Below are positions 55,380-57,574 of a stretch of 64,000 nucleotides of DNA, piece by piece; the first letter of the stretch is position 1, and every line of letters begins with the position of its first letter. The DNA lies in NCBI RefSeq assembly GCF_053078305.1, contig NZ_CP166879.1. One strand, written 5' to 3'. Under the pieces are notes generated by a model, which was not told where the DNA came from, did not search any database, and saw nothing but the letters and a program-made list of their open reading frames with translations. A program made the position numbers and the translations under genes.

Positions 55380-56669
55380 ATGACGCGCCGTGCTATCGGG
55401 GTGAGTGAAAGACCGCCACTTTTACAGACAATCCCGCTTAGTTTGCAACATTTGTTCGCCATGTTTGGTGCAACCGTCCTGGTGCCCGTCTTATTTCATA
55501 TTAACCCGGCGACTGTACTGTTATTTAACGGTATTGGAACGCTGCTGTATCTCTTCATCTGTAAAGGGAAAATTCCGGCTTATCTTGGTTCCAGCTTTGC
55601 CTTTATTTCACCGGTATTGCTGCTGTTGCCGTTGGGGTATGAAGTCGCGCTGGGCGGCTTTATTATGTGCGGCGTGCTGTTTTGCCTGGTTTCTTTTATC
55701 GTGAAGAAAGCGGGGACCGGCTGGCTGGACGTGCTGTTTCCACCTGCGGCAATGGGCGCAATCGTTGCCGTCATCGGTCTGGAGCTGGCGGGCGTAGCTG
55801 CCGGTATGGCGGGTTTACTCCCGGCTGAAGGGCAAACGCCAGACTCCAAAACCATCATCATCTCTATTACCACCCTGGCGGTCACGGTTTTAGGTTCCGT
55901 GCTGTTCCGTGGTTTCCTGGCAATTATCCCGATTTTAATTGGCGTGCTGGTGGGGTACGCGCTCTCTTTCGCAATGGGAATTGTCGATACCACGCCGATT
56001 ATTAATGCTCACTGGTTTGCGCTGCCAACCCTCTATACGCCGCGCTTCGAGTGGTTTGCCATTCTGACTATTCTGCCAGCGGCGTTAGTGGTTATTGCCG
56101 AACACGTAGGGCACCTGGTAGTAACGGCTAATATCGTCAAAAAAGATCTGCTGCGCGATCCAGGTCTGCACCGTTCGATGTTTGCTAACGGCTTGTCGAC
56201 CGTGATTTCCGGCTTCTTTGGCTCCACGCCAAACACCACCTACGGGGAAAACATTGGCGTGATGGCGATCACCCGTGTTTACAGTACCTGGGTTATCGGC
56301 GGGGCGGCGATTTTCGCTATCCTGCTTTCCTGCGTCGGTAAACTGGCTGCCGCTATCCAGATGATCCCATTGCCGGTGATGGGCGGCGTTTCGCTGCTGC
56401 TTTATGGTGTCATCGGTGCTTCCGGTATTCGTGTTTTGATCGAATCGAAAGTGGATTACAACAAAGCACAGAACCTGATCCTGACTTCCGTGATTTTGAT
56501 CATCGGCGTCAGTGGCGCGAAGGTAAACATCGGCGCGGCGGAGTTGAAAGGTATGGCGCTGGCGACCATCGTCGGTATCGGCTTAAGTTTGATTTTCAAA
56601 CTGATCAGTGTGCTGCGCCCTGAAGAAGTGGTGCTGGACGCAGAAGACGCGGATATAACAGACAAATAA
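55380..56669 (+). CDS. uraA: uracil:proton symporter UraA
   Basis: ORF track 55338..56669; recognised start [16 protein letters not shown]; 429 aa. Confidence 0.9.
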
Positions 56670-56763
56670 TGTACCGACCGGGCAGTGTTGCTGCCCGGTT
56701 CAAACATCATGGCATTCTGTGGTAAACTTCTCGCGATTTTGTGAAATCCTGGTTGAGGTATCT

Positions 56764-57465
56764 CTGAACACACCGGCACAGCTCTCTTTGCCACTTTATC
56801 TTCCTGACGACGAAACCTTTGCAAGTTTCTGGCCGGGGGATAACTCCTCTTTACTGGCCGCGCTGCAAAACGTGCTGCGTCAGGAACATAGCGGTTACAT
56901 CTATCTCTGGGCACGCGAAGGCGCGGGGCGCAGCCATCTGCTGCACGCGGCTTGCGCGGAATTGTCGCAGCGTGGCGATGCGGTGGGCTATGTCCCGCTG
57001 GATAAACGCACCTGGTTTGTTCCGGAAGTGCTCGACGGTATGGAGCATTTGTCGCTGGTCTGTATCGACAACATTGAGTGTATTGCAGGCGATGAGTTGT
57101 GGGAGATGGCGATTTTCGATCTCTACAATCGAATTCTGGAATCGGGCAAAACACGGTTGTTGATCACCGGCGATCGTCCACCGCGGCAGTTGAATCTGGG
57201 ATTACCGGATCTCGCGTCGCGACTCGACTGGGGGCAGATCTACAAATTGCAGCCACTTTCTGATGAAGATAAGTTGCAGGCGCTACAGTTACGCGCGCGT
57301 TTGCGTGGTTTTGAACTGCCGGAAGATGTGGGGCGTTTCTTGCTGAAGCGGCTCGACAGAGAAATGCGCACGCTATTTATGACGTTGGATCAGTTGGATC
57401 GTGCGTCGATTACCGCGCAACGTAAATTGACCATTCCGTTTGTGAAAGAAATTCTGAAGTTGTAG
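56764..57465 (+). CDS. hda: DnaA regulatory inactivator Hda
   Basis: ORF track 56719..57465 starts at GTG; recognised 233-aa protein begins at CTG codon 56764 ([12 protein letters not shown]), as I recall from the literature. Confidence 0.75.
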
Positions 57466-57479
57466 ATAAGGTGTGTATT

Positions 57480-57574
57480 GTCGGATGCGGCGCGAACGCC
57501 TTATCCGAACTACGCGAAGTTAATCCATAGTATTCGTAGGCCGGATAAGACGTGGCAAGCGTCGCATCCGGCAA
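57480..57574. repeat. REP/BIME elements between hda and yfgD
   Basis: GTCGGATGCGGCGCGAACGCCTTATCCGAACTAC and GTAGGCCGGATAAGACGTGGCAAGCGTCGCATCCGGCA. Confidence 0.6.

Follow-up and report, generated by a model that had tools for sequence, protein, structure and literature searches.

Initiation of hda at a CTG codon conserved across Enterobacterales

The window analyzed here is a stretch of 64,000 nucleotides from contig NZ_CP166879.1 (NCBI RefSeq assembly GCF_053078305.1). Its part from 54.6 to 59.4 kb is the upp-uraA-hda / arsC(yfgD)-bepA neighbourhood of Escherichia coli, the same as in K-12. The 901-nt query 56600-57500 of the window matched 5425 of 5426 complete E. coli genomes with at least 95% identity, and the best match was 99.8% identical. 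Among these matches, one genome carries a second copy, and one match belongs to a record that is classified as plasmid. Nested imperfect inverted repeats of the GCCGGATAAG...CGCATCCGGC type were observed at 57481-57572, between the stop of hda and arsC. They look like REP/BIME palindromic units, placed in the convergent intergenic region of hda and arsC.

In the open reading frame (ORF) list of the window, the longest ORF of hda extends from GTG 56719 to 57465 and encodes 248 aa. An in-frame CTG is located at 56764-56766, exactly 45 nt (15 codons) 3' of this GTG, and is followed by AAC ACA CCG GCA CAG CTC TCT TTG CCA CTT; reading from this CTG yields a 233-aa Hda. The preliminary description of this DNA had given both starts with their lengths (GTG 56719, 248 aa; CTG 56764, 233 aa), and its coordinates and sequence proved exact. 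The tool used for the ORF list takes ATG, GTG, or TTG as the only starts, and the 248-aa entry is therefore mechanical. The features of the locus are as follows.

56677..56699, + strand: terminator hairpin of uraA, ACCGGGCAG-TGTTG-CTGCCCGGT, an inverted repeat whose 3' arm is at least 95% conserved in 87 species
56699..56704, + strand: -35-like hexamer TTCAAA, read from the sequence, with an 18-nt spacer to the -10 element
56719..56763, + strand: 15-codon N-terminal extension regarded as spurious, consisting of noncoding promoter and 5' UTR, as indicated by its unconserved frame and the NCBIfam models
56720..56728, + strand: extended -10 element TGgTAAACT, overlapping GTG 56719-56721, indicated by conservation and by a transcription start site (TSS) 7 nt downstream
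56735, + strand: TSS of hda (G), from SMRT-Cappable-seq
56755..56759, + strand: Shine-Dalgarno (SD) sequence GAGGT, invariant in all 87 species
56764..56766, + strand: initiation codon CTG of hda, indicated by conservation, annotation, literature, and the TetRP signal
56764..57465, + strand: hda CDS, 233 codons and the TAG stop, encoding the DnaA inactivator Hda, based on NCBIfam models and the alignment with PDB 5X06
56779..56796, + strand: beta-clamp-binding motif QLSLPL, residues 6-11 of the 233-aa Hda, read from the sequence

The encoded protein passed the equivalog cut-offs of two NCBIfam models for Hda, NF005982 with 476.6 bits (cut-off 268) and TIGR03420 with 281.4 bits (cut-off 194.8). 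These models begin at residue 14 (NF005982) or 21 (TIGR03420) of the ORF, leaving ORF residues 1-13 outside every NCBIfam Hda model. The DnaA-like AAA+ domain (PF00308) and the Hda lid domain (PF22688) are present in the precomputed Pfam annotation of the 99%-identical P0002 and of other close homologues. Hda with the DNA-loaded clamp stimulates the hydrolysis of DnaA-ATP, the process called RIDA (PMC5835720). The crystallised E. coli Hda (PDB 5X06) consists of a 20-residue tag followed by MNTPAQ..., and this chain can be aligned residue for residue over all 233 positions, with Met at the position of the CTG.

The N-terminal clamp motif QL[SP]LPL is found close to the N-terminus of the 233-aa protein, as QLSLPL at residues 6-11, and the clamp-binding role of QLSLPL is well established. 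The offset of this motif was compared among approximately 126 full-length representatives of the Hda family with 40-63% identity. In most of them, a QLxLxL-like motif is located 1-8 residues from the predicted N-terminus, with the mode at 3. The 233-aa Hda of E. coli fits this family offset with its Q at residue 6, while the 248-aa form is an outlier. Hda proteins outside Enterobacterales, such as that of Shewanella amazonensis (PDB 3BOS) and those of three outgroup loci (L093-L095), belong to the same family and also have the clamp motif near the N-terminus. In the three outgroup loci, GTG or ATG starts are located around 8 codons before the clamp motif. These starts are canonical, and among the lineages sampled a CTG start was seen only in Enterobacterales.

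The CTG start of hda is already known since 2008 and is already included in reference annotation. EcoGene 3.0 cites Su'etsugu et al. (J Biol Chem 2008, 283:36118) for the experimental CTG start, and it is through this EcoGene 3.0 entry that the native N-terminus Met-Asn-Thr-Pro... is credited to the same work. The "originally annotated GUG" of hda is also mentioned in the literature. In the MG1655 genome (NC_000913.3), the hda CDS (b2496, NP_416991.2) is 702 nt long, at 2618075-2618776, and begins at CTG. This K-12 gene (NP_416991.2 / WP_001307333.1) is the same gene as that in the window, with the same 702-nt CDS and CTG start. There is no relevant difference between them; in the 60 nt 5' of the CTG, the window has C at 56709 and K-12 has G. 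WP_001307333.1 is likewise annotated as a 702-nt CDS, its first base corresponding to 56764, in four sampled PGAP genomes including O157:H7 and strain 042. The E. coli chromosome record NZ_CP102488.1 (H30) has as its first base the C of the CTG, aligned with 56764.

Initiation at the CTG is also indicated by TetRP, ribosome profiling under inhibition by tetracycline. The TetRP supplement of Nakahigashi et al. 2016 (PMC4909307) records a 45-nt difference for hda between the 2006 and 2014 annotations. The automatic caller of that study gave "no change" for hda, and it was the manual inspection by its authors that put the initiation signal at the CTG site (PMC4909307); the verdict is taken here from the published supplement. 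No entry near hda was found in the Cappable-seq supplement (PMC4782308), and hda is absent from the main text of the Ribo-RET preprint.

The conservation of the start was analyzed with 80 species-representative genomes, which cover nearly all named genera of Enterobacteriaceae, and with seven species from other families of Enterobacterales (Erwinia, Yersinia, Proteus, Hafnia, Dickeya, Xenorhabdus, and Serratia aquatilis). In all 87 species, CTG occupies the position aligned with 56764. At the 25 other invariant Leu columns of hda, 3-6 synonymous codons each are observed in the same species, and this contrast with 87/87 marks the CTG start as fixed by selection. Only two of the 134 invariant degenerate columns are occupied by a single codon, codon 1 (CTG) and codon 4 (CCG). 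Within E. coli, 5415 records carry the 41-mer centered on the CTG with 100% identity, and its central 15 nt (56758-56772) show a single mismatch in at most one of 5424 genomes.

Upstream of the CTG, conservation takes the form of separate blocks: the 3' arm of the terminator with the -35 region, the extended -10 element, GCG.TTT at the TSS, the SD sequence, and the start. No codon periodicity was seen in the upstream conservation profile of the 87 species. Depending on the species, 33 to 39 nt separate the -10 element from the CTG, and thus the frame of the 15-codon extension is not kept. The GTG in the -10 box is in frame with the CTG in only 11 of 79 Enterobacteriaceae loci, and in 46 of the 79, the stretch from the CTG back to the closest stop codon upstream contains no in-frame ATG, GTG, or TTG. 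In over-extended Hda predictions, GAGGT is read as a pseudo-conserved "EV".

The arrangement around the CTG is that of a bacterial CUG start: the last base of GAGGT is separated from CTG 56764 by 4 nt, a working distance for an SD sequence, and no canonical start is better supported. The translation initiation region is unstructured, with z = +1.0 against shuffled controls. An mRNA structure hiding or exposing the start was considered and rejected, as nothing beyond the shuffled controls was found. An out-of-frame uORF of 8 codons is present at 56741-56767 (GTG AAA TCC TGG TTG AGG TAT CTC TGA), and its stop at 56765-56767 overlaps the CTG as cTGA. Translational coupling through this uORF was rejected because the ATG or GTG equivalent to its start is in frame in Salmonella/Citrobacter and missing in Klebsiella, Enterobacter, and others. 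The uORF is unconserved outside Escherichia and probably meaningless.

The transcript of hda also bears on the start. SMRT-Cappable-seq (Yan et al. 2018, PMC6131387, Supplementary Data 2) includes the operon b2496 with the TSS at 2618805 on the reverse strand. As the hda CDS start at 2618776 corresponds to 56764 of the window, this TSS corresponds to 56735. It is 7 nt past TAAACT (56723-56728), and the hda-specific mRNA has a 29-nt 5' UTR (56735-56763). The GTG at 56719 is at -16 relative to the TSS, and the second and third bases of this codon form the "TG" of the extended -10 element. The GTG is therefore absent from the hda-specific mRNA, which cannot encode the 248-aa form.

The extended -10 element is kept as TGnTA(A/G/C)(A/C)CT in 79 of 79 Enterobacteriaceae loci. 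In the 87 species, its columns reach at least 95% identity, and GGTTCA at the -35 region is at least 95% conserved. TTCAAA would act as the -35 element of the hda promoter. A promoter scan found no sigma-70 site 5' of hda, since TTCAAA-18-TAAACT reached 8/12 with the threshold of 9/12; the promoter is accepted despite the scan because of the conservation and the published TSS. A DnaA box (TGTGnATAA) was considered for TGTGgTAAACT and rejected, with two mismatches in E. coli and a better fit to the extended -10 element. The conserved block GCG(A/T)TTT at 56733-56739 coincides exactly with the TSS G 56735, and several of its columns are at least 95% conserved across the 87 species. It could represent a preference of the initiation region or discriminator, or a regulator site. 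The C at 56709, which is G in K-12 and strain XH990 (ATGGCATT vs. ATGGGATT), is located in the promoter spacer and is probably a neutral strain polymorphism.

Taken together, these data make it very probable that hda is expressed from its own promoter with initiation at CUG 56764 to produce the 233-aa Hda, the 248-aa form being an artefact of ORF calling. In this reading, transcription of hda is driven by its own promoter, composed of the -35-like TTCAAA (56699-56704) and the extended -10 TGgTAAACT (56720-56728), and the mRNA begins at G 56735. GAGGT (56755-56759) then positions the 30S subunit, and the initiator tRNA decodes CUG 56764 as fMet. The product is the 233-aa Hda with the beta-clamp-binding QLSLPL at residues 6-11. 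The position of GTG 56719, within the extended -10 element and 16 nt 5' of the TSS, implies that the 248-aa form is an artefact of ORF calling.

The hda gene is not transcribed only from this promoter. The 3' end of upp-uraA transcripts is placed by SMRT-Cappable-seq at the TTS 2618838 on NC_000913.3, which corresponds to 56702 of the window (PMC6131387). The U-tract of the uraA terminator is poor (TTCAAAC), and the 3' arm of the terminator overlaps the -35 region of hda. SMRT-Cappable-seq also revealed an operon variant b2498|b2497|b2496, and 95 of 260 reads (M9) pass the uraA terminator, a substantial read-through into hda (PMC6131387); hda is thus also co-transcribed with upp-uraA. These read-through transcripts contain GTG 56719, and therefore a trace of the 248-aa form is possible.

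Dual initiation, with most Hda started at the CTG and a minor functional isoform of 248 aa made from the read-through upp-uraA-hda mRNA, would be compatible with this operon variant and with the open frame from GTG to CTG in E. coli. It is nevertheless very unlikely, as the extension is conserved neither in frame nor in sequence beyond the promoter and SD motifs. In a GTDB species-level genome labelled E. coli (L006), the frame between GTG and CTG is even broken by a 1-nt insertion. No SD sequence precedes the GTG, and no report of a long Hda isoform was found in the literature.

Native Hda of 248 aa started at GTG 56719, the form annotated before 2008 and given by the mechanical ORF list, is less probable still. 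No canonical start of the longest ORF comes before this GTG; it is picked by Prodigal-type calls in Logan and ENA assemblies (P0002, 3510 members), and it is present in the read-through transcripts from the upp promoter. It is, however, situated inside the conserved extended -10 element, 16 nt 5' of the hda TSS, and lacks a preceding purine-rich SD sequence. Only 11 of 79 Enterobacteriaceae have the corresponding GTG in frame, and 46 of the 79 lack canonical upstream starts altogether. With translation from the GTG, 20 residues would separate the N-terminus from the clamp motif, making the protein an outlier in the family. The TetRP signal is at the CTG site, and the literature, as far as EcoGene 3.0 cites Su'etsugu et al. 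2008, also speaks against the GTG.

A start at TTG 56788 (codon 9), chosen for several database proteins (P0063, P0104, P0106, and P0116) and yielding 225 aa, can be dismissed, as it would remove most of the clamp-binding motif QLSLPL, has no SD sequence, is TTG in only 43 of 87 species (CTG in 41 and TTA in 3) and so not conserved as a start, and is contradicted by TetRP and the annotation, which put the start at 56764.

Initiation at CTG 56764 instead of GTG 56719, as proposed in the preliminary description, is thus borne out by the literature, the MG1655/RefSeq annotation, TetRP, the TSS at 56735, and the conservation in 87 species. The experimental correction of this start in E. coli, which the description had mentioned, can be traced through EcoGene 3.0 to Su'etsugu et al. 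2008, and the sequence agrees with it, as do public annotation, the TSS data, and initiation profiling. Both checks that had been suggested point to the CTG: the TetRP signal, by manual inspection of its authors, is at the CTG site, and the alignment of enterobacterial Hda starts has CTG in 87/87 with GAGGT invariant. The expectation that automatic annotation would mis-call the start was right for ORF finders and Prodigal-type calls, which give 248 aa, but not for PGAP, which has the CTG in every RefSeq record sampled. The 248-aa form constitutes the cluster P0002, whose 3510 member sequences come from gene calls of Logan and ENA assemblies. The practical value of the present analysis is confined to annotation hygiene, as ORF finders and Prodigal-type callers still output the 248-aa Hda for E. 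coli.

Divergent start calls are also seen in other genera, where ORF finders and Prodigal-type callers produce Hda variants of 235, 238, 241, 248, and 258 aa. In Erwinia, Yersinia, Proteus, Hafnia, Dickeya, and Xenorhabdus (L086-L091), hda has the sequence GAGGTGCTTCTG at approximately position 601-609 of each locus. Annotators, including many NCBI records, choose here the GTG inside the SD sequence GAGGTG, which leads to a protein of 235 aa beginning with MLLNTPAQ. This GTG has no SD sequence of its own, and the CTG two codons after it is conserved in all these loci. In Serratia aquatilis (L092), a 2-nt insertion shifts the GTG within GAGGTG to another frame, with the CTG retained; the NCBI record of this species starts Hda at the CTG, with 233 aa. 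Judging from these sequences, the 235-aa calls outside Enterobacteriaceae are probably wrong and the CTG is the likelier start.

In Salmonella/Citrobacter (L005, L007-L015, L017, and L020), a 1-nt insertion relative to E. coli brings an ATG or GTG (GATTTTATGAAATCC) into frame. This codon is located 8 codons (about 24 nt) 5' of the CTG without an SD sequence, and the mRNA is predicted to begin only about 6 nt away from it. Starting there would yield 241 aa, and database entries of that length exist. These ATG-extended calls of 241 aa in Salmonella/Citrobacter may be mis-called.

CUG is a poor initiation codon, and the change from CTG to TTG is a single transition. Among the 87 Enterobacterales species, no replacement of the hda CTG by ATG, GTG, or TTG was found, and the fact that not even TTG has taken its place suggests that Hda synthesis is selected to be low; the strict retention of CUG probably keeps it so. 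The conservation argues for selection of the weak start itself, a point relevant to the control of DnaA inactivator levels in the cell. This putative role of CUG can be likened in principle to that of the AUU start of infC, the gene for IF3. The AUU is a conserved non-canonical start whose weakness limits or regulates synthesis through IF3 discrimination, and the autoregulatory loop of infC has been demonstrated. The likeness lies in the conserved weak start; for hda, it is the 87/87 conservation that suggests a role of CUG in dosage or in dependence on IF3. The conservation slightly favors a CTG start that would be ancestral in hda and fixed over the seven sampled families of Enterobacterales, under selection for a weak start that caps dosage and possibly makes the RIDA capacity sensitive to IF3 or growth rate. 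What is mildly new here is the breadth and strictness of the CTG conservation.

In E. coli K-12, a CTG start has been verified for a second gene, yfjD (EcoGene 3.0), which is unrelated to hda and is the other known member of this rare class. The CTG start of yfjD was predicted by conservation and inspection of the ribosome-binding site, and was confirmed by mutagenesis of the start codon (EcoGene 3.0).

Besides the CTG start, the CCG at codon 4 (56773-56775) is the sole invariant degenerate column of hda with a single codon in the 87 species. The fixed CCG may be a sign that initiation at a weak start constrains the early coding region.
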